Positions 5,876 to 50,063 of a stretch of DNA of 64,000 bases are shown here, in pieces (positions within the stretch are counted from its first letter, which is position 1; every line of letters starts with the position of its first letter). The notes beneath the pieces were generated by a model. It was not told the DNA's origin, ran no database searches, and saw nothing but the letters and a program-made list of their open reading frames with translations. The translations under genes were made by a program, and so were the position numbers. This DNA is from Candidatus Levyibacteriota bacterium (GTDB taxonomy: Bacteria > Patescibacteriota > Microgenomatia > Levybacterales > UBA12049): contig DAIDHK010000001.1 of NCBI GenBank assembly GCA_027459725.1, positions 131,411 through 195,410 of the forward strand. Reading direction: 5' to 3'.

Positions 5876-5902
5876 TAACTGAGATCTATATATAAACGAT
5901 TT

Positions 5903-6709: not shown

Positions 6710-6725
6710 TCAGAAATGGTGTACT

Positions 6726-8219: not shown

Positions 8220-8270
8220 GAGTTAAGTTATTAGATTGAATAAAAAGAAAAAATTGATAATAATTAACAT

Positions 8271-12171: not shown

Positions 12172-13038
12172 CTAATCATTTTTTTGTGCATATTGTGAAC
12201 TTATCCACCCAATTTTGTCATCTGGTAACTTAACCTCATACCATCCATTTTTTTCATCCAAAAGATATAAGCTATCACCCGGCTTTACCTGTTCAACTTC
12301 TGCGCTGTCTATATTGGCATCAGCTCGTACGCGCAAAAAACCTGTTGGGGTATCTAATATAGTAACCTTTGCCACCACAGGTGAAGGAGAAAGCTGTGCA
12401 GATGATGATGCATTCTCACTCGCACTACCGGATGCAGGTATTGGCTGATTAGACGCAGCTAAATAAATTGTCGCTTGCAGAATATATCCATTCGGGGTAT
12501 TTATATGTAGTATTTTATCAACGTAACCGTTTTTTTGTACTACTAATTTATGATCCGAAGCTGTCGGATTGTTATATGATAGAGGGGTATTACCTATAGA
12601 ATTATCATCAAGCAGCACATTAGCAGAGCTGGGGAAAGATGTAACCAAAAGCGAGCTACTATTAGAATTGTTTGCAGGATTTAACTCCAGAACGCTTCCG
12701 CTGGATTGTCCCGGGGGGCCAAAAGTGTAATCAACTACTGTCAAAACTCCCTTTCCTATTGAAATATGCTCAGCAAATGGAGCACTGCTCCCCTGCTTAG
12801 GGACAAGAGAAATGATGTAATTACCAACAGGCAGTACATTGCCGCTTTTGGAACTCTCACAACGACAAATTGGAGTATCACCTATATATTTGTTATTCAG
12901 ATATACCTTAGAAACCGGTTGACTCGTTATCTGTAGCTCTCCAGTACTATAGCCCTGCCCGAAGAAAAACTGCATGGTAAAGAAAATTGCCGCTGTTATG
13001 AGTAATGATAGAAGTAAAACTAGAACCGCTTTTTTCAT
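12172..13038 (-). CDS. Secreted protein with C-terminal bacterial SH3 (SH3b) domain
   Basis: N-terminal signal/TM (MKKAVLVLLLSLLITAAIFF). The C-terminal ...GDSLYLLDEKNGWYEVKLPDDKIGWISSQYAQ is SH3b-like. The middle may be PEGA-like. Confidence 0.5.
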   Translation of the reverse strand: MKKAVLVLLLSLLITAAIFFTMQFFFGQGYSTGELQITSQPVSKVYLNNKYIGDTPICRCESSKSGNVLPVGNYIISLVPKQGSSAPFAEHISIGKGVLTVVDYTFGPPGQSSGSVLELNPANNSNSSSLLVTSFPSSANVLLDDNSIGNTPLSYNNPTASDHKLVVQKNGYVDKILHINTPNGYILQATIYLAASNQPIPASGSASENASSSAQLSPSPVVAKVTILDTPTGFLRVRADANIDSAEVEQVKPGDSLYLLDEKNGWYEVKLPDDKIGWISSQYAQKND

Positions 13039-13127
13039 AAATATGATTTATATATTTAAACTAAATTAGAAGCTCTATCAACTATATCATGGAAGAAAAC
13101 TTAGGATCAAGGAATTCAAATATATTA

Positions 13128-15014
13128 TCATTCCCAGAGTGCGAAACGTTTACTAATCTTCTCTACTTCTTCATTATCACCAAAAAATCCAACCGCATAC
13201 AATTCAATGTCTTTTTCGTCCTGTTCTTCTATCATTTTGCCTAACTTTGTATCATCGGTTGTTTCAATCATATCTTTATTAAATGCCAGATGTAACATTC
13301 TTTTGTTTTCTACTTCCTGCAAAACATCATGTAACTCTGATTCGCTGGCAACTAATATGATTATGGCATATTGAGAATTACGCGGGAGATCTTTACCGTC
13401 TTTAGTAATAAAATATTCACCAGTTCCAAAATTTACTCCCATTTTATTTCCCAAATATGCGCCTACGTGAGCAGTTGCATTCATCGCCTTCCAGGAAGGT
13501 AAATCTTTACGCACAATTACTGCTGCTTTATGGGAGAAATCCTGTTTTCCAGAGTGCTGTCCTTCGTTTTTTACTTTTTGTCCTTCATCTTGTTTCATGG
13601 TTGGAAAGAATACCATTTCACGAACCGGTTTATCTACGAGCATACTAAATAATCTTTCTGAAATACCAAAACCGGCAGCTGGAGGCATACCATACTCTAA
13701 CGCTTCCACATAGTCCTCGTCCATCATCTGTGCTTCTTCATCTCCTGCCTCACGCAGTCTCATCTGCTCTTCAAATCTTTGCTTCTGGTCAATGGGATCA
13801 TTTAGTTCAGAAAATCCTTTACCCAGCTCTGAACCCATTGCTAAAATCTGTGTTCGCTCAACTAAATTTTCTCTGCCCGGAATACGTTTGGCAAGTGGTT
13901 CTACTTCTACCGGATGATTCATAACAAACATAGGCTGAATAAGTTGGGGACGGATAGTTTTTTTATATAAATAATCAAGCAATCTACCTTTACCCAAGTT
14001 AGGTTCAACCTGAATATGCAGTTTATCAGCTAAACGATACAAATCTTCAATGGTCATTTTCTCTGTATCTACCTGCCAATGCTCATTTAACAAATCTAGG
14101 TATTCTTTACGCGGCCACTTTCCGGACCAGTTAATCGTTTGTCCCTGCCAACTTGTTTGCAAACCAGCAAAAGTTGTTTTAATAACAGTTTGGTACATAT
14201 CCTGCAAAAAATCCATCAACTGATTATAGTCCGCATATGCCCAATAAAATTCCAACTGTGTATAATCCTGTAGATGTTCATCATCAATGCCTTCATTACG
14301 AAAGATTCTGCCAATTTCAAATACTTTTTCAAACCCACCTACCAATAAACGCTTAAGTGGTAATTCTAGCGAAATTCGAAGATATAAATCCATATCCTGT
14401 GCATTATGATGAGTTATGAATGGTCGGGCATCCGCACCTCCCGGAATTGATTGTAGAACAGGTGTCTCAACTTCTAAAAAACCATTATCAATAAGATACT
14501 GACGCATACTTTGCCAGAAAATTGTTTTCTTTTTAAATAACTCACGTAATTCCGGGTGCATTAATAAATCAAGATAGCGTTTACGCAACAGTACTTCTTT
14601 ATTTTTTATATCGTAAAATTCACTTGGTAAGGGTAATAGTGCTTTGGTCAGTAAGGTAAAACTAGTAGGAGCGATTGAGATTTCCCCTGCCATTGTTTTT
14701 ACCACTTCACCCTCAACTCCAATATAATCTCCAATATCTAATAAGTTTAGATTTTTATATAAATCTCCCAACAGTTTTTTTTGAAAAAAAATTTGAATTT
14801 TACCTGTCTCGTCCTTTAAATCGGCAAAGGCGATATTGCCATGTGTACGAAAAGAATATAGTTTACCAGCTGTCTTAACAGATCTACCTTCCATCTGCAA
14901 ACACTGAAAAACTGTCTGCTGCCTATCATATTTATGTATATAAGGATCCCATCCAATTTCCCTGATCCTGGCTAGTTTATCAATTCTTGCCTGTTTAAAG
15001 TTTACTTCATCCAT
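13128..15014 (-). CDS. lysS: Lysyl-tRNA synthetase (class II) with about 130-aa C-terminal PTH2/DUF2000-like extension
   Basis: N-terminal OB anticodon-binding domain and class II core (motifs up to ...FFPTMKQ at about residue 470), then a linker. The final roughly 130 aa (VIVRKDLPSWKAMNATAHVGA ... AVGFFGDNEEVEKISKRFAL) align by eye with the peptidyl-tRNA hydrolase 2 fold (VxVRxDL..GK.AAQ.xHA ... GIGPxP....ITGxLKL). Confidence 0.85.
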   Translation of the reverse strand: MDEVNFKQARIDKLARIREIGWDPYIHKYDRQQTVFQCLQMEGRSVKTAGKLYSFRTHGNIAFADLKDETGKIQIFFQKKLLGDLYKNLNLLDIGDYIGVEGEVVKTMAGEISIAPTSFTLLTKALLPLPSEFYDIKNKEVLLRKRYLDLLMHPELRELFKKKTIFWQSMRQYLIDNGFLEVETPVLQSIPGGADARPFITHHNAQDMDLYLRISLELPLKRLLVGGFEKVFEIGRIFRNEGIDDEHLQDYTQLEFYWAYADYNQLMDFLQDMYQTVIKTTFAGLQTSWQGQTINWSGKWPRKEYLDLLNEHWQVDTEKMTIEDLYRLADKLHIQVEPNLGKGRLLDYLYKKTIRPQLIQPMFVMNHPVEVEPLAKRIPGRENLVERTQILAMGSELGKGFSELNDPIDQKQRFEEQMRLREAGDEEAQMMDEDYVEALEYGMPPAAGFGISERLFSMLVDKPVREMVFFPTMKQDEGQKVKNEGQHSGKQDFSHKAAVIVRKDLPSWKAMNATAHVGAYLGNKMGVNFGTGEYFITKDGKDLPRNSQYAIIILVASESELHDVLQEVENKRMLHLAFNKDMIETTDDTKLGKMIEEQDEKDIELYAVGFFGDNEEVEKISKRFALWE

Positions 15015-15679: not shown

Positions 15680-16843
15680 TTAATCTAAATTTTCAATTAT
15701 TTTATTTAAACTTCTTATCATTAAATCAATATGTCTTTTTTGAATAATATACGAGGGTAGAAATCTTATTACGTCATCTCCTGCAGGAATGACCAGAATT
15801 TTTTCATCCTGCAACTGTTTCATGATTTTATTCCTAATGTCTTTTTTTACTACCAGTCCGATCATTAAGCCCTTACCCCTTACCGCTAATATTCTGTTGT
15901 TTTTTATTAAAGATAGCTCCTTCAAGAGATACAGTCCGTTATTTTTAACTTTAGTTAATGTTTTCTTATCAAGTAAATCGAGTGTGGCCATAATTCCGGC
16001 ACAAGCCAGTGGATTTCCCCCAAATGTCGAACTATGAATATGCTTAGGTACCAAATTTGCCACCACATCTGTAACAATCGTAGCACCGATTGGAATGCCC
16101 CCAGCTAATCCTTTGCCCAAGCATAAAATATCACCTGCAATTCCACCACTGGCAATAAATTTTCCAGTTCTGCCCATACCTGTTTGAATTTCATCGATGA
16201 TTAACATAATTTTTTTCGATTTGCAAATCTTTGAAATATTAATTAAAAAATTATCATCAGGGACATGGATACCTCCCTCTCCCTGAATCGGTTCTATAAT
16301 AAAACCTGCTGTATTTTCATCAATTACATTATTTAAGCTTTCAATATCATTGAATGGTATACTGACAAAATCCCACAATAATGGCATGAAGGGTTGTTTA
16401 TACCTTTCACCCGAAGTTGCAGAAAGTGCCCCCAATGTTTTTCCATGATAACCATGGTCACAAACGATAAATTTTTTCTTACCTGTTGACAGCACTGCAA
16501 ATTTTAATGCAGTTTCAATTGCCTCTGCTCCTGAGTTACTGAAATAAACTTGTGTATAATCATTGCCGCACTTATTTACCAGACGAGCTGCCGCACGCGC
16601 TCTCGTTTCATTAGTAAAACTTGCATGTAACGTAGTCAGTTTATTTATCTGATCAATCAGTGCTCTATTAATCCTCAGATTATTGTAACCTAAAATATTC
16701 ACTCCGTAATTTGTCATGAAATCTAAATATTGATTATCGTTCTCATCATAAAGATATACCCCTTTACCAAGCCTTAAGGATAGCTTTCTGTCAATATATG
16801 TATTGACTAAATAATTTTTCTGTAAAAACCCACTGATGTTCAT
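15680..16843 (-). CDS. lysJ: Class III PLP aminotransferase, LysJ/ArgD type (acetylornithine / LysW-semialdehyde aminotransferase)
   Basis: 387 aa, acetylornithine-aminotransferase-like N-terminus (YLDFMTNYGVNILGYNN). Directly follows lysZ. Confidence 0.8.
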   Translation of the reverse strand: MNISGFLQKNYLVNTYIDRKLSLRLGKGVYLYDENDNQYLDFMTNYGVNILGYNNLRINRALIDQINKLTTLHASFTNETRARAAARLVNKCGNDYTQVYFSNSGAEAIETALKFAVLSTGKKKFIVCDHGYHGKTLGALSATSGERYKQPFMPLLWDFVSIPFNDIESLNNVIDENTAGFIIEPIQGEGGIHVPDDNFLINISKICKSKKIMLIIDEIQTGMGRTGKFIASGGIAGDILCLGKGLAGGIPIGATIVTDVVANLVPKHIHSSTFGGNPLACAGIMATLDLLDKKTLTKVKNNGLYLLKELSLIKNNRILAVRGKGLMIGLVVKKDIRNKIMKQLQDEKILVIPAGDDVIRFLPSYIIQKRHIDLMIRSLNKIIENLD

Positions 16844-35824: not shown

Positions 35825-36340
35825 CTATCTGGTCAAAGCAAGGTTAGGTACAGTTCCATCAATAGCCTGTGCATCAGGAGCATAAACAGTTATGCGATTA
35901 TTTGTTGAAGAAACTGAAATCTGATAACCGCTGTCATAATTGGCAGAACATGTTATTTGTTGACCATTGTTGATACTTGGATCCTCTGGAAAAGCTGCAA
36001 CATAAGATGGGACAATAGTAGAACAAATGTCTGCTTCACCAACTGCGCTATTTGGATAAGGAGCAGTAAGGCCAGCACCTAGTTCATAAACCTTACCATC
36101 AGCATTTAGTCCTGTAGGCAATTGTCCGTGATGGTCTGCTAAATACTGCCCAACAGCATCAAGAATAGTCTTAACAGCACTCTGTCTCTGAGTATTATTG
36201 GCCTGAGCAAACTGACGAGCTGGATTAATAGCAACCAGTACAATTCCCATCAAAACGGCTAAAATACCAATCACAATTAAAAGCTCAATAAGAGTAAAAC
36301 CCCGTTGAAGTTTAGAAATTTTTAATGCTGTAGAATTCAT
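35825..36340 (-). CDS. Type IV pilin (class III signal peptide)
   Basis: ...KLQRG/FTLIELLIVIGILAVLMGIVL: prepilin peptidase site G|F, Glu at +5, hydrophobic helix. 171 aa. Confidence 0.85.
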   Translation of the reverse strand: MNSTALKISKLQRGFTLIELLIVIGILAVLMGIVLVAINPARQFAQANNTQRQSAVKTILDAVGQYLADHHGQLPTGLNADGKVYELGAGLTAPYPNSAVGEADICSTIVPSYVAAFPEDPSINNGQQITCSANYDSGYQISVSSTNNRITVYAPDAQAIDGTVPNLALTR

Positions 36341-36426
36341 AATTAATTTATTGATCTGTATTTAGTATTAATTGTTTACGGTTGTTTGTCAACTGGTATT
36401 AAATATATCTATTTAATGCAATTTGC

Positions 36427-36464
36427 AAAAAAAGAAGAAGCCTAGGCATGAGCTTCTTCTTTAA
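36427..36464 (-). terminator. Rho-independent terminator downstream of hup (bidirectional hairpin)
   Basis: 10-bp perfect stem AAGAAGAAGC/GCTTCTTCTT (36432-36441 / 36452-36461) with a 10-nt loop. It is flanked by an A-run on one side and T's on the other, giving a U-tract on the minus-strand transcript. Confidence 0.6.
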
Positions 36465-36485
36465 TTGACTTATTCTTAATAATAA

Positions 36486-36767
36486 TTATTTAACTGCTTT
36501 TCGCAAAGTTTTCCCGGGAGTAAACCCTGGTGATTTATGCGCAGCAATGGTAATTTTTCCGCCTGTATGTGGATTTCTGCCTGATTTGGCTGCTTTTTTT
36601 CGAATAGAAAAAGTACCAAATCCCGTTATGACTACTTTCTCTCCTCTTTTTAAAGAATCACGTATGGCATTTAGCATTACATCCACTGCCTCCCTTGATG
36701 CACGATTAGTTAAGTTAGCTTTTTTAGCAATTAATTCAATTAAATCTCTTTTGGTCACTTTCTTCAC
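36486..36767 (-). CDS. hup: DNA-binding protein HU
   Basis: MKKVTKRDLIELIAKKANLT...GFGTFSIRKKAAKSGRNPHTG... 93 aa, HU/IHF fold signature including the arm RNPxTG. Confidence 0.9.
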   Translation of the reverse strand: MKKVTKRDLIELIAKKANLTNRASREAVDVMLNAIRDSLKRGEKVVITGFGTFSIRKKAAKSGRNPHTGGKITIAAHKSPGFTPGKTLRKAVK

Positions 36768-36858
36768 CTCCTTTTAGTGAAATGTTACAATTAGACTTAC
36801 AGTATAATTAAATTGTAATATTGTCAAGTGAAAAATATTTAAATGGGATGAAGAAACT

Positions 36859-38127
36859 CTATATTGTGGTTTCAGGATAAACAGCACGGAACTCACGAAT
36901 AACGGTGACTTTTACTTCACCGGGAACTGCCAGAGAACGACTAACCTCCTGCTGAATTTTTTGTGCCAAAATAACCGTATCTTCATCAGCTAAGCGGCCC
37001 GGATTAATGATGACTCTCAGTTCCCGACCAGCCTCAAAAGCATATGCATCTTCGACGCCTTCATAACGTTTGGCAATAACTTCCATTTCCTGCAAGCGCT
37101 TGGCATAGTTTTCAATGTCTTCATAGCGTGCACCGGGACGAGATGCAGACACAACATCACCAATATGAACAATCACCGATTCTATACTTGAAAACGGCTT
37201 GTCTTCATGATGCTCGGCTACACAGTTAATAACTGCTTCGGGGAAATTATAACGTTTCAACAGCTCGACCCCTAATTTGACATGACTGCCTTCTCCTTCT
37301 AAAACTTTTCCGATGTCATGAAACAGAGTTGCTAAACGAACAGTATTTACATCCGCCCCTATTTCTTCAGCTAAGTGAATACCAACTTTAGCAACTTCCA
37401 GAGAATGGACAACTAAATTTTGTCCATATGAGGTACGGAATTTAAATCTGCCTAGAATGGGATATAAATCTGCTGGTAAATTAAAAATATTGACTTCATT
37501 AGCAATTTTTTCACCCTCAGTGAATAAAATTTTCTCTAATTCTGCTCTTGTTTGTTGGACAACCTCTTCTATACGAAAGGGCTGAATACGCGTATCTTTA
37601 AGTAACTTTTCCAATGCACGACGGGCGACTTCTCTTCTGATCTGATCAAAGGAAGATAATCTGATTACACCTTCTTCATCCAAATCAACATCTACACCCG
37701 TAGCCTGTTCAAACGCTCGAATATTGCGTCCTTCCTTACCTATAATACGACCTTTTATTTCCTCATCTTCTACTTTGACAACAGAGACTGTATATTCAGG
37801 GATGTAGTTTAATGCTCCATGTCTCATACTATCGAGCAGAATTTCCTGAGCTTTTTTATCAGCCGATCTTTTAGCTTCTTCTTCGCCTTCTTTGATCATG
37901 CGCGAAATCATTTGTGCGCTCATATGCTCTGTTTCCCTGAGAAGTTCTTGTTTGGCTTCTTCACGTGTCAAGCCTGACACTCTCTCAAGTTTTTCTGCAT
38001 ATTCCCCGCGTTTCTTATCTAATGCTTCCTTATCTTTTTCTATCTGTTCCTGCTTGGCTTCAAGTTTTTCTTGACGTTCAAGTAATTTTTTCTCAAGAAC
38101 CAATAAATCTGCTTGTGGTGTTGCCAT
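36859..38127 (-). CDS. rny: Ribonuclease Y (KH + HD domains) without N-terminal membrane anchor
   Basis: KH motif GRIIGKEGRNIRAFE and HD domain HSLEVA...LFHDIGK. The N-terminus is a coiled coil with no hydrophobic segment. 422 aa. Confidence 0.85.
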   Translation of the reverse strand: MATPQADLLVLEKKLLERQEKLEAKQEQIEKDKEALDKKRGEYAEKLERVSGLTREEAKQELLRETEHMSAQMISRMIKEGEEEAKRSADKKAQEILLDSMRHGALNYIPEYTVSVVKVEDEEIKGRIIGKEGRNIRAFEQATGVDVDLDEEGVIRLSSFDQIRREVARRALEKLLKDTRIQPFRIEEVVQQTRAELEKILFTEGEKIANEVNIFNLPADLYPILGRFKFRTSYGQNLVVHSLEVAKVGIHLAEEIGADVNTVRLATLFHDIGKVLEGEGSHVKLGVELLKRYNFPEAVINCVAEHHEDKPFSSIESVIVHIGDVVSASRPGARYEDIENYAKRLQEMEVIAKRYEGVEDAYAFEAGRELRVIINPGRLADEDTVILAQKIQQEVSRSLAVPGEVKVTVIREFRAVYPETTI

Positions 38128-38347
38128 AATATCAATACTAATTTTGCAATAGAAGAACTGACAAGTGAATGCGGATTACTTACTTATTAATAAAGTTAGA
38201 GAAATAATCTTTTGCATATTTCCTGCAACTTCTATCGCTATGTTTAATTATACTGCAAATACAAATCTGCGTCAACGCGATCTGAAAATATAACTGTATA
38301 TATAGAGTAAAGCCTCTCCAAATTTATAAATTGTATACATCAATAGT

Positions 38348-38830
38348 CTACTTATTCAAAGCTGCCAAAACATTATCAATTGCTTTCTTGCTCACTGCCC
38401 AGGAAAACCCCTTACGCGCCAAAACTCCTCCTAATTTGTTATAAATCTCATGTCTTTCCATCCCATTGTATTGCCCTACTTTTCTTTCAACCAAATCCTC
38501 TGCCATCTCCAAATCACTTCTTACCACTGGCGTATCAATTATTACCTGATCAATTATTTCTTTACTGATCCCCTTTTGTTGTAATTCGTATCGTAGAAGA
38601 TACTGACTGCGTGGCTTGGAACGAGACCGGGATTCTACCCACGTACGAGCAAATGTTTCATCATTCACCAAACGTTGAGACCTTAATTTAGCAATTATTT
38701 TCTCAATTATCTCCTCTGAAGCATTTTTCTTTTCCAGGTTATCTCTTATCTCTTTTTCCGAACGTAAGCGATAATTGAGGAATCGATAAGTACTTAATAA
38801 GTATTTCTCAAAAAAAATATCCTGATCCAT
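38348..38830 (-). CDS. recX: Regulatory protein RecX
   Basis: 160 aa with three-helix-repeat pattern. Immediately downstream of recA. Confidence 0.8.
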   Translation of the reverse strand: MDQDIFFEKYLLSTYRFLNYRLRSEKEIRDNLEKKNASEEIIEKIIAKLRSQRLVNDETFARTWVESRSRSKPRSQYLLRYELQQKGISKEIIDQVIIDTPVVRSDLEMAEDLVERKVGQYNGMERHEIYNKLGGVLARKGFSWAVSKKAIDNVLAALNK

Positions 38831-38867
38831 ACATTAATAATAAATTAACAGCATAACAAAAAGAATT

Positions 38868-39986
38868 CTACTGAGAGGATACTGTGGTCTCTGAATTAAC
38901 TTCATCATCATCATTCTCTACACCTACGGCTACTGGCATACGCGCACCATCGGCATTTTTAGCTCTTATCTCATCTACAATCTTTTTTTGTAAATCTTTA
39001 TTTTCTTTAAGTTTATCCATAGTCGCAGCCTTACCCTGGCCCAACATTTCATTACCATAGCGATAAAATGCACCAGATTTGGTAATTATCCCCAACTCAA
39101 CACCTACATCAACAATTCCACCTTCACGGGAAATACCATCTCCGAAGACATCAAACTCGGCAATACGAAAAGGGGTAGAAACCTTATTTTTTACCACCTT
39201 CACACGGTGACGGGAACCTATAACCTTATCTCCATCTTTTATGGTCTCTATTTTTCTGATATCCATTCTTACTGAAGCATAGAATTTCAAAGCCAAACCG
39301 CCAGTTGTAGTTTCAGGGTTACCAAACATAACCCCAATTTTCTGACGCAGCTGATTAGTAAAAATAACAACTGTTTTTGATTTAGAGATAACACCCGTTA
39401 ATTTGCGTAAAGCCTGTGACATTAAACGTGCCTGCAATCCCACTACTGCATCTCCCATCTCACCTTCGATTTCCGCACGTGGTACCAGAGCAGCAACTGA
39501 ATCTATAACCAGAACATCTACGGCTCCTGATCGAACTAAACTTTCAACAATTTCCAAAGCCTGTTCCCCAGTATCCGGTTGAGAAATCAATAAATCATCC
39601 AGCTTAACACCTATTCTCTCTGCCCAGAGTGGATCCAGAGCATGTTCGGCATCAATAAAAGCGGCAATACCACCATGCTTTTGGGCCTGAGCAATCGTTG
39701 AAAGACAAACAGTAGTTTTCCCGGAAGCTTCTGGTCCGTAGATTTCAACTATTCTACCCCGAGGTAATCCCCCTACACCCAAGGCAATATCCAGTGGTAA
39801 GCAACCCGTAGATACGACAGAAATGTCTAATTTTTGTGCTGCTTCACCAAAACGCATGATTGCTCCACGACCATATTGTTTTTCAATTTGGTCCATTGCC
39901 ATACGAATGGATTGTAATTTGGCTGTAGCGTCAGCTGATGGCTGTACTGCAATAGATTTTGTAGAATTATTAGAGGATCGAGCCAT
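38868..39986 (-). CDS. recA: Recombinase RecA
   Basis: AIMRFGE..., Walker [11 protein letters not shown]1/L2 loops. The ORF track extends to 40073 via an upstream start. I place the start at the ATG encoding MARSSNN... (complement of 39984-39986). Confidence 0.9.
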
Positions 39987-40116
39987 AAAACTATGCTCAA
40001 TATATACTACATTATGATACAATGCAAGTACCAATTCCGGGAAAAATAACCAAATATTCTGAAAATTTTTCAATATTTCTTCTCGTATTAATTTGGTTTA
40101 TGATTAATGCAGATAT

Positions 40117-40187
40117 CGGGGAGTAGTTTAACGGTAGAATGCGCGCATGGGGTGCGTGTGGCCGGAGTTCAATTCTCCGCTCCCCGA
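40117..40187 (+). tRNA. tRNA-Pro (anticodon GGG)
   Basis: Folded by eye. Acceptor CGGGGAG/CTCCCCG. D-arm GTTT-AACGGTA-GAAT. Anticodon stem CGCGC/GCGTG (one G-U) with loop ATGGGGT (U33, GGG, G37). Variable loop TGGC. T-arm CGGAG-TTCAATT-CTCCG. Discriminator A. No encoded CCA. Confidence 0.75.
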
Positions 40188-40204
40188 CTGGTATAGAAAA
40201 GTTC

Positions 40205-41041
40205 TTAGACAGCTTTTACTTCTTCTGCATTAAGAAAGTTATCAACAATTGGAATCAATTCTTGCCTGTCAGAGAGAGGATTAAACCTACGTGAGGGATT
40301 ATCACTATACGCAAAGCCTAACAATCGGGCTGTAATAGTCTCAACAAACTCTTCCTCAATAGGTAATTCCTGACCTGGCTTTCTATAAAATTAAGAATAA
40401 TGTGAAACAGGATCATATCTTTCTGCAGCCTGAGCAAAACGAGTCATAAAATCCAACCCATCAACTACCTCTCCGCTGGGTAAGCGCAAAGTATATCCTT
40501 CTGTATATAAAGCTTGTGTAGCCAGTGTATGTGCGAATTCATGCACTAAACCCTCCGCATGGATAATTTTCCTAACACTCTCTGGAATAAAGGAAGGAAT
40601 TTCAAGTAGCCAAATATCACTTGAGGGACTGCCTGACTGCCGCCATCTGGTATTGTCTGTATATGAGGGAATAATAGCAGTTTTACTTAATGCTAACGCT
40701 GGATCAGATGTTGTACTTATGTTCTCAGGTGTGGCGTCATGTGCGAAATACCTCGAAGGTTTGCCTATAATCCCTCCTGTGTTGAGTCTCGATATCCTGT
40801 GAGCACGAGTTGGAAATAGGTGTAAAAGTCCACTTACTTCAGCGGACGTAACATGCAGGTGTTCAATTCCTTGTAGTGAGAATGGAGGAGCTTCCTATCT
40901 GGGTTGAGGCAAGAGTCCAGTAATCTTAGCCGTATTCCCACTATACCAGTCAATTGTGGGTCTCATGTCCAATCCGGAATTGTTTGATTGAGGCTCAGAA
41001 GGCTTGATTTGATCAGTTTGCTTAAATCTCTCACCTGCCAT
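40205..41041 (-). pseudogene. HExxH zinc-metallopeptidase-like gene interrupted by two in-frame stop codons (TAG at 40895-40897, TAA at 40391-40393), no frameshift
   Basis: Hand translation of the minus strand gives one 278-codon frame: ATG (41041)...LPQPR-TAG-EAPPFSLQGIEH...KIIHAEGLVHEFAHTLATQ...DPVSHYS-TAA-FYRKPGQELPIEEEF...AEEVKAV-TAA (40205). The three pieces are 48, 167 and 62 codons, all in the same frame. Composition appears GC-richer than the neighbours. Confidence 0.6.
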
Positions 41042-41110
41042 AAGAAGAATTATATAATTTCAAATTTATAATTGCAAAAACTTATGAGCTGCATTGGTAT
41101 TTGTTCACGT

Positions 41111-41848
41111 TTAAATCTTTATCTCACTGATTACAGGTAAATGATCAGAGGCTCTGGTTTCTCCCACATAAGTTTGCAAAACTTCAACATCCCGGCTGGT
41201 AAAGATATAATCAATGCGGTACTCAAGTCCATTTACTTTAAATCCTCTGTAATTGGCAGGATATACACTCCATGTTTTTTGTTTTAGATTTTTATCTGCT
41301 GATTCCAAAACTTGTGCTATCATCTGAACAGTGCTGCTTTCAGGCAAACTATTAAAATCTCCTAATAAAATCACTTTATTTTCCCGAAATAGAGAAATTA
41401 ATTTTTTAACCTGCCTGTTACGAATTTGAGATTCCTCAAAACCCTGTGAATAACCTAAATGGGTATTAAAAATAGTAAACTTTACATTGCTTACTGTAAT
41501 TTCTGTCCTTATGACCACTCTAGGTTCTGTGTCAGCAGAACCCTGGTATTCAGTTAAGGAACTCAATTCTATTACTTCAGACGAGGAGATAGGAAATCTA
41601 CTTAATATTGCATTCCCCAGATCATATTCCGGATGATGTCGATCAGTGTGAAAAGCTTTGAAGTAGATAAAATTGTAGCCTAATTCATTTGCAATGCTTT
41701 CTGCTATATTAAATTGTTTACCCTCTCGTTTCTGTTCAATTACTTCTTGTAAACCAATTACATCAGGATTTTCTGTTTTTAAATATTGAATAATTCCTGG
41801 TAAATATTTCCCATGCCAGATATTCCATGTCATAACTTTTATTTTCAT
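41111..41848 (-). CDS. Endonuclease/exonuclease/phosphatase (EEP) family protein
   Basis: MKIKVMTWNIWHG...GLQEV... N-terminal EEP motifs and a C-terminal SDHLPV catalytic His region. 245 aa. Confidence 0.7.
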   Translation of the reverse strand: MKIKVMTWNIWHGKYLPGIIQYLKTENPDVIGLQEVIEQKREGKQFNIAESIANELGYNFIYFKAFHTDRHHPEYDLGNAILSRFPISSSEVIELSSLTEYQGSADTEPRVVIRTEITVSNVKFTIFNTHLGYSQGFEESQIRNRQVKKLISLFRENKVILLGDFNSLPESSTVQMIAQVLESADKNLKQKTWSVYPANYRGFKVNGLEYRIDYIFTSRDVEVLQTYVGETRASDHLPVISEIKI

Positions 41849-41962
41849 ATGTGCATTCTATAGAACTCCTTCTATATAAGCAATGTGCTGCAAGTACTGG
41901 TATTGGTTTGACACTATTGGTAATTACCAAAAGATAATTACTTTATATCACAATCATATTCT

Positions 41963-42325
41963 TTGAGCTATAATACTACTGTGACTATTGAGGAAATCCA
42001 ACAAAAAGTTATTAAATTTCGTGACGACCGGAATTGGAAACAATTCCATAATCCTAAGGATCTTGCACTGTCTCTCACTCTAGAAGCAGCTGAGGTTATG
42101 GAGAAATTTCAGTGGAAAAATTCACAGGAGATGGGTGAATATATTCAGAATAATAGATCCAATATTGCAGAAGAGATCGCTGATGTATTTAAATACTTAT
42201 TAATAATTTGTCATGATTTAAATATTAATTTAGAGCAAGCTACACTTAAGAAAATGAAGAAGGATAACCAGCATTATCCCGTAAAAAAAACCAAAGGAAA
42301 ACACACCAAATATACAGAACTTTAA
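41963..42325 (+). CDS. MazG-like nucleotide pyrophosphohydrolase (small all-alpha NTP-PPase)
   Basis: ...KFRDDRNWKQFHNPKDLALSLTLEAAEVMEKFQWK...EEIADVFKYLL matches the MazG/HisE-type EExxE...E/D pattern. 120 aa. Starts on TTG or an internal GTG. Confidence 0.7.
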   Translation: MSYNTTVTIEEIQQKVIKFRDDRNWKQFHNPKDLALSLTLEAAEVMEKFQWKNSQEMGEYIQNNRSNIAEEIADVFKYLLIICHDLNINLEQATLKKMKKDNQHYPVKKTKGKHTKYTEL

Positions 42326-42458
42326 AATCTGTTAGGATATATCTTTACCTATATCACAATTATCCTGTCAACTGCCCTTATTCACATCCTTGCACAAAGT
42401 TATGGGAGACTTCTAGCCCTGCTTGATTTTCGCCTAGATTTTGAAACAAATAAATAAC

Positions 42459-43442
42459 TTATCTGCTCCATCGCGCATAAATTCCAGTTGATAATAGTCT
42501 TTTTCTGCTTTTTTCTTCCAGCGCTAATTCTCCAGATTCAACTGTCCCATCAAACTTTTGCATCATATCCTCAATTGTGTTCAGTAGCATGATGGAAGAA
42601 GCGGAAACTGCATAGGCATTAATTAGCACAAACAGTGGAGTACTTGATAAAACCTGCTGACAAGCGTCCACCAATTTAGGGAAACTTTCCGTAAACTCCC
42701 AGCGTTCACCTTTGGGTCCGTGACCAAAGACAGGAGGATCCATAATTATTCCGTCATATTTAATACCTCTTCGAATCTCACGCTGCACAAATTTTAAACA
42801 GTCATCCATTATCCAGCGGATTGGTTTGTCGGATAGATTGGACAGACTTTGATTTTCTCTCGCCCAACTAATCGTCGGATAAGATGCGTCCACATGGGTA
42901 ACATTTGCTCCATTAGCAGCACATACCAAACTTGCAATACCAGTATATCCAAATAAATTCAAAACTCTTATTATTTCTCCATGCTTGGTTTTTGATCTTT
43001 GCAATTTTATTTTTCCTTCCAGCCAATCCCAGTGCAGATGCTGCTCCGGGAAAACCCCTGTATGTTTAAAAGGCGACATTTTAACCCTGAGGGTCAACTG
43101 TTTATAGCGCATTTTCCAGCTTTCAGGCATAAAATGGCTACGCATCCAACTTCCTTTACCGTTCTGCTCCCTAAAAGATGCGTCAGCCTTAACCCAGTCT
43201 AAATTAGAGAGGCCAGGCTGCCAGAGGCACTGCGGATCAGGCCGTGACAGAATATAAGGCCCAAACCGCTCTAGACGCCTCAGATTGCCGCTATCCAGTA
43301 GTTCATAATCCATCCATCCCCGAGAGGATAAAATAGTCATGTTATTTAGTATAATCTTAGACACCCTCACAAGCAACTCGTTTAAGACTACACAGATTAG
43401 GCACATTTTGTGCTCACATTGTCGTACAATTAAAATGATCAC
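42459..43442 (-). CDS. Class I SAM-dependent methyltransferase, RlmI/YccW-like (rRNA m5C-type architecture)
   Basis: LNLFGYTGIASLVCAANGANVTHVDAS (motif I GxGxG-like) and IIMDPP (motif IV). The N-terminal region resembles the PUA-like region of RlmI. The real start is probably downstream of the listed one. Confidence 0.6.
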   Translation of the reverse strand: MIILIVRQCEHKMCLICVVLNELLVRVSKIILNNMTILSSRGWMDYELLDSGNLRRLERFGPYILSRPDPQCLWQPGLSNLDWVKADASFREQNGKGSWMRSHFMPESWKMRYKQLTLRVKMSPFKHTGVFPEQHLHWDWLEGKIKLQRSKTKHGEIIRVLNLFGYTGIASLVCAANGANVTHVDASYPTISWARENQSLSNLSDKPIRWIMDDCLKFVQREIRRGIKYDGIIMDPPVFGHGPKGERWEFTESFPKLVDACQQVLSSTPLFVLINAYAVSASSIMLLNTIEDMMQKFDGTVESGELALEEKSRKRLLSTGIYARWSR

Positions 43443-43525
43443 ATTTTTACTATATATTATGCCTGATTTGTGCCTATAGAGTATATTTTATACTCAATAT
43501 AGATCTTGTTCCCTGGTCAACCCTG

Positions 43526-44038
43526 ATGTATAATGGAGATTACGTTATGAAGAATGATATGAAAAGTAGACTTATTGATTTTTCCAAACTTAAATTCGAA
43601 GTACGCAAAGCAATGCGATATAACGACGTCGGAGATTACTTTGGTAATACTATTATTTCCTACGATATGGGCGATGAAATAGTTAATAATGCTATTATGC
43701 TTCACGAATTTATTGAATATACGCTGATTAAATCTGCCGGTATTCCAGTTGGACTGATTGATGCTTTCGATACTACCGACGATGCTGAAGAGAAATATCC
43801 AGGAGAATTCAAACTATATAGTAAATTTCACAGATTAGCTAACGCAATCGAGAGACAATTTATAGAGAATTTAGGTCTGAACTGGCAAAAGCACGAGAAG
43901 ACTATTGATACAGCTAAAGTAGAAGTGGCGATGAAAAAAATTGAAGAAGAATTGCATAAAGAGCATCCATCCGAAAAAAAGCTTGAAGCTTCAAAAGATG
44001 TAGTAGAGGATGTGTTTAAGGAAAAAGGAAATAAGTAA
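43526..44038 (+). CDS. Hypothetical protein
   Basis: 170 aa open frame. No motif recognised. Confidence 0.4.
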   Translation: MYNGDYVMKNDMKSRLIDFSKLKFEVRKAMRYNDVGDYFGNTIISYDMGDEIVNNAIMLHEFIEYTLIKSAGIPVGLIDAFDTTDDAEEKYPGEFKLYSKFHRLANAIERQFIENLGLNWQKHEKTIDTAKVEVAMKKIEEELHKEHPSEKKLEASKDVVEDVFKEKGNK

Positions 44039-44039
44039 G

Positions 44040-45455
44040 CTATTTAATTTCCCCTACTTTTACGTCAAAAGGCAGACTATAAAGATTTCTCTCCAAACCA
44101 TAGTTAAGTCTGTTTAAAATTGATGAGGAATAATCAAGTGACAAATAATCATCTTTTGAGCGATAGTAGGCTCCAATAAAGGCAAACCCATCAACATTAC
44201 GATACATCTTATTAACTGCTTCATTAATACTTTTGCCAGCGCCTGTAATTACAGCTAAATTCCAATCAGTTCCCACTGAGACAAATTTACCACGCCGATT
44301 ACGTTTGACATCCCATAACCACAGATCTTTTTCAATCTCCGGCTTAAAATCAACAGTAAGATCAGCAGATATTTGTTCAGTTTCGTCATTGCGGTTAAGA
44401 TTAAAAATCCGTACTGAAGAGCCTACAGTTCCAATACTTAAAGGATTTTGTTTTTTAACCATTCTCTCAAAATATTCATGAACAGAGGGCGCTTGTGAAA
44501 TTTGCGTAAAGTATTCATTATATCCAGGACGATTGGAACAAAATTCACCAAAATATATTCTGCCATCTTTTTTATTAATCAAAATTGAAGCATCCCAGAT
44601 AAACAATCCCTTCCTAGTTTTGGCAATCTCATCAACAATGGGAGGAAAACACAGTTTGTTAATTCTGTCTTCCATCAATGTGGGGAATACTAAATCTTCT
44701 GAGCATCCTGTCTGAATAGAAATATTTCCGCTGCCAAATGATTTATTTTCTATATCTATAGAAGTTCCAATAGGAACTCCATCATAATATAATTTTTCCG
44801 GTGTTAATTCGATAATGGATGGTATAAATAATTCAAGTATAAAACCACGTTTTTCGTATTGTTCGGGGAAATTAATTAACATTTCCAAAATCTGTCCTTT
44901 TGCCAAATCAGGATCATAAACATCAGGAACAAAAGTACGAGCACCATCATCTTTGCCTTTTAAAACCCATAAATCATTGGAAGTTTCTAGGAAAGCAACT
45001 GCTTCTTTAGTTTTTTCAAATTCTACAACGTCGGGAGTATACAACTTAGGATAATTCTGACGAACAAATTTTTTAGCACTGTCTCTATCAATTTCTAACA
45101 TAAAGTCTTCTTTTGTCGGAAAATTTCCTTCGAATCCTTTATCTCTTAAACGTTCAGCCCATCTATATAAATTATTCTCTTCAAAAAAAAGATACCATTC
45201 CTGAGGATTTTTTACTTCTAACAATTCCTGTACTACCTTCTCTGCAGATTTAATATCCAAAATACCTTTAAACAGCTCTAATCTTCTCTGCTTATTAAAT
45301 GAAGATTCTGTTGCCCTTGAAACTTCTTCCTCCATGACATAATCTTTTACATCTTCAATGATACCTACCAAAACATCATAACCTTCCTGTTGTAATTTAT
45401 AGGCGATCGGCAAACTTAGTCCACTAAAAGTAATAAAAGCATATTTCATATCCAA
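44040..45455 (-). CDS. PurD-like ATP-grasp ligase (phosphoribosylamine--glycine-ligase fold), orphan
   Basis: Pre-ATP-grasp N-domain, central LWVLKGKDDGARTFV (PurD A-domain-like), EFCSNRPGYNEY (ExN.R.GDPE-like), and C-terminal GKFVSVGTDWNLAVITGAGKSINEAVNKMYRNVDGFAFIGAYYRSKD (PurD C-domain pattern). 471 aa. No other pur genes in the window. Confidence 0.5.
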   Translation of the reverse strand: MDMKYAFITFSGLSLPIAYKLQQEGYDVLVGIIEDVKDYVMEEEVSRATESSFNKQRRLELFKGILDIKSAEKVVQELLEVKNPQEWYLFFEENNLYRWAERLRDKGFEGNFPTKEDFMLEIDRDSAKKFVRQNYPKLYTPDVVEFEKTKEAVAFLETSNDLWVLKGKDDGARTFVPDVYDPDLAKGQILEMLINFPEQYEKRGFILELFIPSIIELTPEKLYYDGVPIGTSIDIENKSFGSGNISIQTGCSEDLVFPTLMEDRINKLCFPPIVDEIAKTRKGLFIWDASILINKKDGRIYFGEFCSNRPGYNEYFTQISQAPSVHEYFERMVKKQNPLSIGTVGSSVRIFNLNRNDETEQISADLTVDFKPEIEKDLWLWDVKRNRRGKFVSVGTDWNLAVITGAGKSINEAVNKMYRNVDGFAFIGAYYRSKDDYLSLDYSSSILNRLNYGLERNLYSLPFDVKVGEIK

Positions 45456-45507
45456 TTAATTAAACTTCATAAAGTGAAAAAAATCAATAACTAAAATAAG
45501 CATTAAA

Positions 45508-46479
45508 TTATTTTTTGATGAGGTTGATTAATATTTTTTTTATATCGTTAATTGAGTCATTATCGTAAATAGATATTTTATAAATTTTTTTCTGCAAGTT
45601 CTTCAACTTTTCCTCTTTTATATTTAATTCTTCTTTAGTAATTAAATCGATTTTTGTTAGTAAAATAATTTCCTGTTTTTGATTAATCTCATTACCATAT
45701 TTCTCAAACTCATCATGAACGGCTAGGTAATTATTAACTAAATCATCTTCACTACAGTCAAGGCAATGCACTAGTACTCTTGTCTTCTCTATATGTTTTA
45801 GGAATTTAAATCCAAGTCCTCTTCCCTGACTTGCTCCTTCAATCAAGCCGGGAATATCAGCTAATATAATTCCATCCATTACCCCTAGGTTTGGTTCAAG
45901 GGTAGTAAAAGGATAATTGGCAATTTTTGGTTTTGCGTTAGTCAATACTGATAACAAACTGCTCTTACCTGCATTAGGTAAACCTATAAAACCAATATCC
46001 GCAATCAATCTTAATTCCAGTTTTAAATTTTTCACGCTTCCTTTAGTTCCCGGTTCTGCATAATGAGGGGCCTGGTTAGTTGAAGATTTAAACTCAGTGT
46101 TACCTCTACCTCCTATACCACCTTTAGCGATTAACAACTTATCTTCTATATTGTCTATTTCATAAGTCTTATTTTTATCTATATCTGTAACACTTGTTCC
46201 CAGAGGTACAAAAATTACTAAATCCTCTCCGGTACGCCCAAATAAGTTTTTATTTTTACCATCTACTCCATTCTGAGCTTTCCATTCTTTTTTAAATTGA
46301 AATTGTTGCAATGCAGTTAAGTCAGTTGACCCCTGCAGATAAACACTACCACCGTTACCACCGTTTCCGCCGTTAGGTCCTCCTTTAAAATTAACTGATG
46401 TGTGTAAAAAAGTGGAAGCACCATTTCCTCCATCCCCACCTTTAACCGTAATTAAGACATTATCTATTAACATAATCAT
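45508..46479 (-). CDS. obg: GTPase Obg/CgtA
   Basis: Gly-rich Obg fold (GGDGGNGASTF..GGPNGGNGGNGGSV) then G-domain GLPNAGKSSLL, ...DIPGLIEGA. 323 aa. Confidence 0.9.
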   Translation of the reverse strand: MIMLIDNVLITVKGGDGGNGASTFLHTSVNFKGGPNGGNGGNGGSVYLQGSTDLTALQQFQFKKEWKAQNGVDGKNKNLFGRTGEDLVIFVPLGTSVTDIDKNKTYEIDNIEDKLLIAKGGIGGRGNTEFKSSTNQAPHYAEPGTKGSVKNLKLELRLIADIGFIGLPNAGKSSLLSVLTNAKPKIANYPFTTLEPNLGVMDGIILADIPGLIEGASQGRGLGFKFLKHIEKTRVLVHCLDCSEDDLVNNYLAVHDEFEKYGNEINQKQEIILLTKIDLITKEELNIKEEKLKNLQKKIYKISIYDNDSINDIKKILINLIKK

Positions 46480-46834
46480 ATTGTATCATCAGTGATACTT
46501 AAAAAGAAGTTTTTTTCTTACGAAAGATTTACCATATCTTTTTTCTCGTCTAATCAAAAAATTAGAGAATTATTTTATTATATCCAATAATGATCTAACT
46601 AAAATTCCACAGATGGCAAATAGTAATACCACGGATCCAACTTCCAATAACGATAATGAAATGAGAGATACAAGGGAATTTAATAGGCATCACACAGAAC
46701 TTAGCCAATAATTTCCTTTCTAAAAATGACGGAAAGCCCAAAACTACTATATAACTGGATCGAAGAGACTCGATAATGAGACTGCTCAAGAAACAGATAG
46801 CAGTTAGCCTGAACATTCTGGTAAATTCAGAAAA

Positions 46835-47077
46835 TTGTCAGATAAAAGCAGCGCTATTCAAGATCTAGTGGATGAAGGGCACAATAAAAAATATATAGGA
46901 CAAACACCTCCAAGTATTCAGGTGGAACCCTCTGCTGCGGTCGAGATTCCCGATCCTGTCTCAATCAAAGATACGCTTGATAATGCACAGAGCATGGAGA
47001 TGCAAGAGAAAGAAGACTTAGAGTATGCTGAAGCGGTCGGTATTAAAAGATCTGTAGATGAGGCGGAGAATACCTAA
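46835..47077 (+). CDS. Hypothetical small acidic protein
   Basis: 80 aa open frame. Low confidence that it is expressed. Confidence 0.3.
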   Translation: MSDKSSAIQDLVDEGHNKKYIGQTPPSIQVEPSAAVEIPDPVSIKDTLDNAQSMEMQEKEDLEYAEAVGIKRSVDEAENT

Positions 47078-47115
47078 AAATACACTAAACTAATAACTTC
47101 TCTTGTTTCCACTTT

Positions 47116-47799
47116 TTGTATAATAAACAAATGATTTATGGAGTAGTATTAATTGGGGAGCTCCTTTTACTTTATCTATTTTCTCAATTATTATCAAAAT
47201 CTATCTCTTTATTGTTCCAGATATTCAGATTCCATCAAATATTAATTGTATTTATCATGGGTATTATTTTTTTGCCAGGGACTTTAATTCATGAATTAGC
47301 ACATTGGTTCATGGCAAAACTTCTTTTTGTACCAACCGGGAAAATCTCTCTTTTACCTAAGTTACAAGGAAATACCATTCGAATGGGAACGGCAGAGGTT
47401 GGTAAATCAGATATTGTCAGACAATTATTAATTGGTGTGGCCCCTTTTATCCTAGGGATAACAATACTGTTCTTGAGCTTTTATTTTTTACTACCCAAAC
47501 TTTCTTCTTTAAATTATGTGCTTCTAGATTTATTCATTTACCTGCTGTTTACAATCTCCAACTCTATGTTTTCAAGCAAGAGAGATTTGGAAGGCATAGC
47601 ATTCTTCTTATTTATATTAATTATATGTTTTAGTTTATTGATAATTTTTGACAAAGAAATAATTGTTCAATTACAAACATTACTGTCTTTATTACCCGCA
47701 CGATATTGGCAAACAGCCATTTACTATTTGTTGATACCTTTAACGCTTGACATCATCATACTAATCGTATTAAGATTGTTTATTCAGTTATTCAAATAA
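47116..47799 (+). CDS. Polytopic membrane protein with HExxH motif (putative intramembrane/zinc metalloprotease)
   Basis: PGTLIHELAHWFMAKLLF at the edge of a TM helix. 227 aa with about 6 TM segments. Confidence 0.45.
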   Translation: MYNKQMIYGVVLIGELLLLYLFSQLLSKSISLLFQIFRFHQILIVFIMGIIFLPGTLIHELAHWFMAKLLFVPTGKISLLPKLQGNTIRMGTAEVGKSDIVRQLLIGVAPFILGITILFLSFYFLLPKLSSLNYVLLDLFIYLLFTISNSMFSSKRDLEGIAFFLFILIICFSLLIIFDKEIIVQLQTLLSLLPARYWQTAIYYLLIPLTLDIIILIVLRLFIQLFK

Positions 47800-47806
47800 T
47801 ATACCT

Positions 47807-48283
47807 ATGAGAAAAGACATTATCAGCGCTATTATAGTTTTTGTAGTAATTGTTGCTGCAGGAACTGGACTTATGTATGTAAGTGCAAAAACTTCATCAA
47901 GCAATGCCACTCCTACACCTACTCAACAACAAAATAGTTCAAGTACCTCAACAGCTGATACAAAAAAGCTACAGATTACTGATGAAAAAGTTGGGACAGG
48001 TCCTGCTGCTAAAAAAGGTGACACAGTAACCGTCAATTATGTAGGTACTCTGATGAATGGTAAACAATTTGATAGCTCTTATTCCAGAAATCAACCTTTC
48101 ACTTTCACTATCGGCGCTGGTCAGGTTATCAAAGGATGGGATTTGGGAGTGGTAGGTATGAAAGTCGGTGGAAAAAGAAAATTAGTGATTCCACCGGATT
48201 TAGGATATGGGAGTACTGCTCAAGGAAGTATCCCTGCTAATTCCACTTTAATTTTTGAAATCGAGTTATTAAGTATCAAGTGA
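47807..48283 (+). CDS. FKBP-type peptidyl-prolyl cis-trans isomerase with signal anchor
   Basis: KGDTVTVNYVGTLMNGKQFDSSY...GWDLGVVGMKVGGKRKLVIPPDLGYG, the classic FKBP domain. 158 aa. Confidence 0.85.
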   Translation: MRKDIISAIIVFVVIVAAGTGLMYVSAKTSSSNATPTPTQQQNSSSTSTADTKKLQITDEKVGTGPAAKKGDTVTVNYVGTLMNGKQFDSSYSRNQPFTFTIGAGQVIKGWDLGVVGMKVGGKRKLVIPPDLGYGSTAQGSIPANSTLIFEIELLSIK

Positions 48284-49981
48284 TCATTTTCTCTTAAAAA
48301 CTCGATACAAATCCATTTGAGAAACATAAACTCTAGTAGGACGTCCATGTGGACACGTAGTATTATTGCTGGTTTTATTTAATTGTTCAAGCAATCTCTT
48401 CATCTCAGAATTAGATAACATGTCCCCAGCCATAATAGCTTGCCTACAGGATAGATATGCCAGTGTTTTGTGGGTTTGTATATCTGTTCTAAAACTTTTT
48501 TCTTTAGCTACTAATACATCATCTGTCCTGGTGAGTAGTTCTAAAATTAAATCTACATAATTCCTGTCTCGAAAAATCAAAGGTACTGCAGTTAAGAATA
48601 ATCTTGTCTTATTTGTTGAAAACGTAAAACCAAATCTCTTTAAAAAATCTCTTGAATCTGTCAATTTTTGCATCTCGACAAAGGGCAGGTCTAACTCTAC
48701 CGGAGCAGATAGAATAAATTGTTCTACTTTACTCTGCTCAAGAAGAAATGCTTTACTGAATTGTTCATACAAAATACGTTCATGTGCGGCATGCTGATCA
48801 ACCAAATAAAATCCTTTTTTTACAGGAAGTAAAATAAATGTTTTATCAATTTGTAATGGATCACCTTTTAACGCATTTTGCTCACTATCCCGTACCATCC
48901 AGGTATCTACATTTTCTTGCAAGAGTAGCCCCATGACAGAGTTAGTAGTTTTGTCTTTAGGGGAAAAAAGAAGATGCACATCTGAAGTAATTGTATACTT
49001 TTGGAGAGCCTGCTGAACTACTTGGGTTAACTCCTCAATTAAATTTTCTTTGTTAGCAATACCTACTTGCTCTTTACGTGGATGAATATTAACATCCACA
49101 AACTCAAAAGGAAGCTTAATAAAAATTATAAAATAAGGATATCTGTGAAACGGCAATAAACTCCCATATGCCAGTTTTATAGTTTTCTGCAGTTGAGTAT
49201 CAGTAATTTGACGTTCGTTAATATAAATTATTTCTTTATTAGAAGTAGATAAAGATTCCGTCGGTGGACTTATTAATCCTCTTATCTCAATAAATTGATC
49301 TTTATGACTAACTTGTATCATATTACTCATCTTGGAAACCGGAAAAAGTAAACTGATACGTTCTAATCTTTCTTTTGATTTATTCAGAATCAATATTTTT
49401 CTTTGATTATGATATAGAGAAAATCCAATTTTAGGATTACCTACTGCTGCAGATATCACTATATCTATTATATGTCCTAACTCTGTTCGTGCACTTTTTA
49501 AAAATTTTTTGCGGGCTGGTATTGTTTGAAACAAATTATTAATAATTACCGTCGTTCCTACTGGCATACCTAGCGGATTTATAGAGTTAACAACTCCATT
49601 TTTTAATTTTACTTCTGTTCCCACTAAACTAGATTCATCCCTACTTTGAATAACCAATTCCGACATAGCTGCCATACTAGCAAGTGCTTCACCCCTAAAA
49701 CCTAAAGAATTTATATTGCTTAAATCATCAACTTCATGTACTTTACTGGTAGTATGAATCTTAAATGATTCAAGCAGGTCATCTTTACTCATTCCATGTC
49801 CATTATCATGAACAATAATCTTTTTTAACCCGTTATTTTCTAAATAGATAGTTAAATTATCAGCTCCCGCATCTAAACTATTATCAATCAACTCTTTAAC
49901 AGCGTAAGCTGGTCTTTCAATCACTTCACCTGCAGCAATGCGTGAAATAACTTCAGGTGGTAAAAGTTTAATAGTTTTCAT
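48284..49981 (-). CDS. mutL: DNA mismatch repair protein MutL
   Basis: GHKL ATPase N-terminus (ELIDNSLDAGA...IVHDNGHGM) and C-terminal dimerisation domain. 565 aa. Confidence 0.9.
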   Translation of the reverse strand: MKTIKLLPPEVISRIAAGEVIERPAYAVKELIDNSLDAGADNLTIYLENNGLKKIIVHDNGHGMSKDDLLESFKIHTTSKVHEVDDLSNINSLGFRGEALASMAAMSELVIQSRDESSLVGTEVKLKNGVVNSINPLGMPVGTTVIINNLFQTIPARKKFLKSARTELGHIIDIVISAAVGNPKIGFSLYHNQRKILILNKSKERLERISLLFPVSKMSNMIQVSHKDQFIEIRGLISPPTESLSTSNKEIIYINERQITDTQLQKTIKLAYGSLLPFHRYPYFIIFIKLPFEFVDVNIHPRKEQVGIANKENLIEELTQVVQQALQKYTITSDVHLLFSPKDKTTNSVMGLLLQENVDTWMVRDSEQNALKGDPLQIDKTFILLPVKKGFYLVDQHAAHERILYEQFSKAFLLEQSKVEQFILSAPVELDLPFVEMQKLTDSRDFLKRFGFTFSTNKTRLFLTAVPLIFRDRNYVDLILELLTRTDDVLVAKEKSFRTDIQTHKTLAYLSCRQAIMAGDMLSNSEMKRLLEQLNKTSNNTTCPHGRPTRVYVSQMDLYRVFKRK

Positions 49982-50063
49982 CTCACCTACTGTAGCAAAA
50001 AATAATTAAGAAGCCAACAAAAATTCTGTTGATAAAACCTTTCTACGCTGTTGTCAGTCTAAA

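Follow-up and report, generated by a model that had tools for sequence, protein, structure and literature searches.

A probable recent pseudogene from a rare family of HExxH proteins beside a tRNA-Pro gene in a Candidatus Levyibacteriota genome

Results

A reading frame with two internal stop codons adjoins the tRNA-Pro gene

The stretch of DNA analysed here, 64,000 nucleotides long and referred to below as the window, belongs to a bacterial chromosome that uses the standard genetic code. Open reading frames (ORFs) of at least 100 aa, 65 in number, cover 89% of it and terminate with TAA (39 ORFs), TAG (17) or TGA (9). The longest stretch devoid of such an ORF extends from 40074 to 41110 and holds the disrupted frame under study; the features of this locus are collected in Table 1. 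The frame comprises 279 codons on the minus strand: from an ATG at 41041, 48 sense codons are followed by a TAG, 167 sense codons by a TAA and 61 sense codons by the terminal TAA (40205-40207), which makes 276 sense codons and two internal stops. Retranslation agreed with the first-pass annotation on a single in-phase frame with exactly two stops and no frameshift, and on the presence of a HEFAH motif in the middle segment. The segment sizes given for the first two segments (48 and 167 codons) were also right; the third has 61 codons and not 62, a figure that counts the terminal stop. The other five frames over 40205-41041 contain 10-31 stops each. The expectation that random sequence would hit more stops was borne out by mononucleotide shuffles of the region, which carried 16.7 stops on average and never two or fewer (0 of 20,000). 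The first start codon of the second segment is a GTG at its codon 117 and that of the third segment a TTG at its codon 23; since neither segment has a start codon near its head, separate translation of useful fragments is unlikely.

Table 1. Features of the disrupted locus and its flanks (positions in the window; the relatives L001 and L071 are described in the text)
Feature	Position	Strand	Basis
Disrupted reading frame, probable pseudogene of an uncharacterised HExxH zincin-like protein	40205..41041	-	translation, full-length homology, synteny with L001
Stop 1, TAG at codon 49, next base G	40895-40897	-	codon alignment with the closest orthologue: CAG (Gln)
Stop 2, TAA at codon 217, next base T	40391-40393	-	codon alignment with L001: TCA (Ser)
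HEFAH motif, residues 167-171	40529-40543	-	translation, family alignment
Ile83 (ATA) where 26/26 homologues have Arg (RSRL motif); radical change, window copy only	40793..40795	-	family alignment, codon alignment
12-bp in-frame deletion relative to L001 (TTTACTGGCAAG), junction between 40367 and 40366	40364..40369	-	alignment
Promoter-like TTGCAA-17-TATAAT, ending 7 nt before the ATG	41049..41077	-	consensus match; function putative
tRNA-Pro(GGG), separate from the pseudogene and convergent with it	40117..40188	+	same place in L001 and L071

The adjacency to tRNA-Pro reported earlier holds, with a gap between the gene stop and the tRNA gene (40189-40204) of 16 nt instead of the 18 given; in the related locus L001 the gap is 13 nt. 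No terminator-like hairpin was detected in the window gap, and transcription of the disrupted gene would continue antisense into the tRNA-Pro gene. Pfam assigned the neighbouring ORFs to RecA, RecX, RNase Y, Obg, an EEP-family nuclease, a MazG-like protein and a SAM methyltransferase, and left two neighbours (170 aa and 471 aa) without any match. The 471-aa ORF (44040-45455, minus strand) had been called PurD-like; neither Pfam nor PDB gave a sequence match for it. It is 93-94.5% identical in both relatives, next to 89-92% for recA and 74-76% for Obg, and to judge from this conservation it looks like a protein of no known family under very strong constraint.

The closest named genome is the Candidatus Levyibacteriota MAG GCA_027459745.1, whose locus L001 has diverged from the window by about 25% in protein sequence. 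Its gene order is mutS, mutL, FKBP, Obg, a 469-aa ORF, the methyltransferase, the MazG-like gene, the EEP nuclease, the gene under study, tRNA-Pro(GGG), recA, recX, RNase Y and, at the far end, a UvrD-like helicase. Genes common to the window and L001 are all collinear from mutS to the uvrD-like gene, and by this synteny MutL and MutS were placed further out in the window. Three genes are extra in L001 relative to the window, encoding a LysE-family protein (8110-8745), a GNAT acetyltransferase (12751-13281) and an IS1595 transposase (15896-16762).

Intact homologues carry sense codons at both stop positions

The conceptual product of the frame matched 26 intact proteins of 206-290 aa, with a best E value of 1e-123 at 70% identity. 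The homologues covered 91-100% of the query, save one truncated 206-aa match at 67%. The closest of them, P0001, is an intact ORF of 282 aa in L001 and represents the syntenic orthologue. As the homologues are single ORFs that align end to end, the three segments constitute one gene and not independent ORFs. When the frame was aligned with its orthologues, as the first-pass annotation had suggested, Gln and Ser were found to occupy the positions of the two stops, and each stop is one substitution away from the orthologous sense codon (CAG to TAG and TCA to TAA). The TAG of stop 1 lies at a position that varies within the family. The TAA of stop 2 takes the place of the second Ser of a near-invariant SHYSSFYRK motif, and about 40 nt around it are almost identical in L001.

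Two further lesions accompany the stops. In addition to the radical change at residue 83, the 12-bp deletion is unique to the window copy and removes four residues, including a Phe kept in at least 90% of homologues. Of the 54 alignment columns conserved to 90% or more, the window copy departs from the family at 3 (a stop, the radical change and the deletion), and its closest relatives P0001 and P0002 at none. All 21 residues that are invariant in the family alignment are kept in the window copy. In the HEFAH motif, both His residues (H167 and H171) are invariant in the family and E168 is found in at least 90% of its members.

The window copy has no frameshifts and its ATG is conserved with L001. 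The promoter-like stretch upstream (41039-41077) is likewise conserved, at 9960-10003 of L001, which implies that the disrupted gene may still have an intact promoter. No Shine-Dalgarno-like sequence was seen. Because the TATAAT ends so close to the start codon and the arrangement is conserved in L001, a leaderless or near-leaderless mRNA is suggested.

The identity of 70% to the orthologue sits inside the range of the neighbouring genes between the window and L001 (56-95%). A relative-rate test counted 16 changes against 8, an excess of window-specific changes that is not significant (p = 0.15) and represents a trend only. Among 18 window genes compared with L001, only the gene at 40205-41041 is disrupted, and a same-frame split-ORF scan of the 64-kb window found no other interrupted genes, only ordinary adjacent ones.

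Combined, these results make it highly probable that 40205..41041 is a unitary pseudogene of recent origin, derived by nonsense mutations from a member of a rare CPR/DPANN HExxH family. Recent inactivation, one of the options raised in the first-pass annotation, is supported by orthologues that are intact with sense codons at the stop positions, by the two additional lesions and by the retention of a promoter-like site and a start codon. The ancestral product would have been about 280 aa long, and no signal peptide is evident in it. Two single-base substitutions would have created the premature stops, CAG becoming TAG at codon 49 and TCA becoming TAA at codon 217, and the window copy would also have gained the Arg-to-Ile change at an invariant site and the 12-bp deletion. 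On an mRNA made from the conserved promoter, translation would halt after 48 codons, ahead of any catalytic residue. For the window copy, we infer loss of function, recency of this loss and descent from a zinc hydrolase.

The locus resembles the unitary nonsense pseudogenes of reduced or host-dependent genomes in several respects: the orthologues are intact and full-length with the stops one substitution away, the changes run in the GC to AT direction (C to T for the TAG, C to A for the TAA), extra lesions lie at conserved sites and the gene is absent from one relative. It differs from them by the very early stage of its decay, with neither frameshifts nor a significant acceleration and with the promoter-like site and the start codon intact. 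On its own, 40205..41041 matters little, being a routine case of the gene loss that continues in a small CPR genome; the proper annotation is a pseudogene, and neither three ORFs nor a candidate for recoding.

Artefacts, readthrough and recoding as alternative readings of the internal stops

As the window comes from a metagenome-assembled contig of 279,945 bp, the stops could in principle be errors of sequencing, assembly or consensus calling, or a minority allele caught in the MAG consensus, the gene of the organism being intact. Heterogeneity of this kind is seen in the family: on contig L026, a family member has a TAA (4672-4674) where the otherwise identical sibling-sample contigs L018 and L019 have GAA, which is a nonsense polymorphism in another lineage, at another position than the window stops. 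It is also in keeping with an artefact that a second copy of the window genome was not found in the collections searched. Scans of genome contigs and metagenome contigs for strain variants returned no near-identical copy, the window's own proteins were found on a single NCBI contig, and exact look-ups of the EEP, recA and recX products of the window returned no gene position on record. Against this, no interruption affects the other 65 ORFs of 100 aa or more in the 64-kb window, and substitution errors making two stops without indels elsewhere do not fit the usual error profiles of short or long reads. Since 837 bp hold four independent lesions and the remainder of the window showed none, an artefact is very unlikely.

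The first-pass annotation had also considered that a full-length protein is still made through stop-codon readthrough or suppression, either programmed or by a suppressor tRNA. A gene expressed in this way would also appear as a frame that is otherwise open and well conserved, and the in-phase segments, the 21 retained invariant residues and the conserved promoter-like site can be read in this sense. However, two independent events would be required, one of them at a TAA followed by T; judging from termination contexts in E. coli, this ranks with the strongest terminators. A stop at either position was found in 0 of about 70 related loci, TAG and TAA together end 56 of the 65 window ORFs, and all three stops terminate normal genes of the window. 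Moreover, the tRNA-Pro is the only tRNA in the window, no Rfam element besides it was detected in 39800-41300, and the invariant Arg and the conserved Phe are lost too. We regard readthrough as extremely improbable. If it did occur, it would be low-level or would rely on a suppressor tRNA encoded elsewhere in the Levyibacteriota-like genome, and it would represent gene-specific or incipient relaxed termination at TAG/TAA in a CPR lineage from which recoding is not known.

Genome-wide recoding was rejected on the basis of stop-codon usage, the density of ORFs and the split-ORF scan. The situation shares with the stop reassignment of CPR bacteria (code 25) the occurrence of in-frame stops in a conserved gene of a CPR bacterium. 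In code 25, UGA encodes Gly in Gracilibacteria and Absconditabacteria, whereas the stops here are TAG and TAA and not TGA, all three stops terminate window genes and the lineage is Levyibacteriota-like; we know of no stop reassignment in this group. Separately, L035 encodes a family member whose frame contains a TGA near residue 231, away from the two stop positions of the window; it could be either a pseudogene or the gene of a code-25 organism.

The interval beside tRNA-Pro is plastic and the gene accessory

The position of the gene against the 3' end of tRNA-Pro had led to the proposal of an acquired islet at a tRNA hotspot, in which an integrative element would have brought in the gene recently, possibly along with the EEP, MazG-like, methyltransferase and 471-aa genes, and the gene would now be decaying. 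The patchy distribution of the family across CPR bacteria and DPANN archaea, in unrelated contexts elsewhere, is compatible with such an origin. Composition points the other way. The region had been described as GC-richer than its surroundings and is mildly so (41.9% versus 36.4% for the window), but several neighbours are alike (recA 40.8%, methyltransferase 42.2%, rny 40.5%) and its GC3 of 30.8% is inside the 24-40% of the neighbouring genes. The orthologue in L001 follows the same pattern, with a GC of 40.3% and a GC3 of 23.3%, the latter inside the local range. Since GC3 is native in both copies and the excess is confined to codon positions 1 and 2, in L001 as well, it reflects amino-acid composition and not foreign origin.

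A repeat of the tRNA-Pro 3' end was looked for as the first-pass annotation had advised: allowing up to 3 mismatches, this 20-nt sequence occurs only once each in the window, L001 and L071, and no relevant direct repeat was found in window positions 36000-50000. Pfam, run on nine ORFs around the gene, identified no integrase domain. L001 has the gene, the tRNA and every member of the proposed islet in the window order, and L071 has the islet members in this order too, apart from the MazG-like gene. As this order is common to L001, and to L071 save MazG, it is older than the split between these species. A phage origin was also discarded, as megablast of 38000-43000 against phage records gave no match.

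L071 is a third relative (ENA ERZ27236897, k141_1015151). In pairwise identities among the three, the window and L001 are closer to each other than either is to L071 in 6 of 8 shared genes. One flank of the interval in L071 retains Obg, a 483-aa ORF, the methyltransferase and the EEP nuclease, the other tRNA-Pro, recA, recX and RNase Y; neither the disrupted gene nor the MazG-like gene is present. The interval itself, from the EEP nuclease to tRNA-Pro (5509-7969), encodes a 348-aa protein with a HETTH motif besides an ORF of 80 aa. This protein has about 17 homologues of its own in Levy-, Roizman- and Patescibacteria, and its AlphaFold model (pLDDT 88) gave weak gluzincin or M34-type matches, including PPEP-3. 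Comparison with the window family by hhalign, made to see whether the protein might be a diverged orthologue, gave a probability of 0.5% in sequence-profile mode and of 2.5% in profile-profile mode (E = 0.019), the latter over the stretch from the HExxH to the acidic helix. Beside the tRNA-Pro 3' end, positions 7238-7989 of L071 contain fragments broken by two in-frame stops and a change of frame. Their matches are proteins of 290-395 aa (42-44% identity, 98-100% of the query covered), one of which carries a PF13408 recombinase zinc ribbon, and from these matches the segment looks like a decayed recombinase-like relic.

Because L071 is devoid of the gene and has other ORFs and a relic in this place, the interval beside tRNA-Pro is plastic and the gene accessory. 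This much of the islet proposal stands, and it is what the locus has in common with tRNA-associated genomic islands: a gene beside a tRNA 3' end, an interval that varies among relatives and a relic in one of them. Integrase, att-like repeat and compositional signal, by contrast, are all missing from the window, and the gene is shared by descent with L001. Decaying cargo of a recent integrative element is thus a very unlikely description; the gene is not a recent acquisition in the window.

The absence of the gene from L071 and the nonsense polymorphism in another lineage suggest that it is dispensable. With the pseudogene described here, these cases of repeated loss suggest an accessory gene that is perhaps host- or partner-dependent.

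The parent family is probably zincin-like

No match to the family was found in Pfam, in NCBIfam or among PDB sequences. A profile search of 1.84 billion representatives retrieved only 187 clusters, most of which have 250-300 aa and align over almost the full profile. A search for literature on this HExxH family or on pseudogenes in Levyibacteria returned nothing.

AlphaFold2 modelled the orthologue P0001 with a pLDDT of 92 and a pTM of 0.89. The model shows a disordered N-terminus, a beta-sheet, a long helix (154-174) carrying the HExxH and a later helix (229-245) on which the invariant residues E234, E235 and E238 are located. Gluzincins place the third zinc ligand on a later helix, and the order of elements in the predicted structure of P0001 would agree with such a layout. 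The best Foldseek matches in the PDB were domains of anthrax lethal factor and were weak (E = 0.06-0.7, TM 0.29-0.43, probability 0.14-0.8, 10-14% identity); assorted zincin-like viral proteins ranked behind them. The Pfam ATLF family gave no match even at E <= 1, and no curated peptidase family was matched significantly by sequence or by fold. The family thus has in common with the gluzincins (MEROPS clan MA(E)), and especially with M34 (lethal factor and the Pro-Pro endopeptidases), a HExxH on a long helix that follows a beta-sheet and an acidic cluster on a later helix; it differs in that the structural matches are weak and a sequence match is absent, and its zinc binding and peptidase activity are predicted only. 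The family is probably zincin-like, of the Glu-zincin type, and the ancestral product of the window gene would be a putative cytoplasmic zinc hydrolase. With a confident model and no close solved relative, the family is a candidate for a new zincin family tied to an episymbiotic lifestyle.

Contexts of the family differ in every lineage examined: no conserved gene neighbourhood was found and, outside the locus described here, no adjacency to a tRNA gene. Across the family (loci L003-L009, L012, L020 and L036), the named genomes that encode members belong to CPR bacteria (Levyibacteriota, Gracilibacteria) and mostly to DPANN archaea (Nanoarchaeota, Woesearchaeota), to which the family appears confined, and include one MAG labelled Methanosarcinales. 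Members of the Levyibacteriota type are about 40% identical to archaeal members, and this level of identity between two unrelated groups of small-celled episymbionts hints at transfer between domains.
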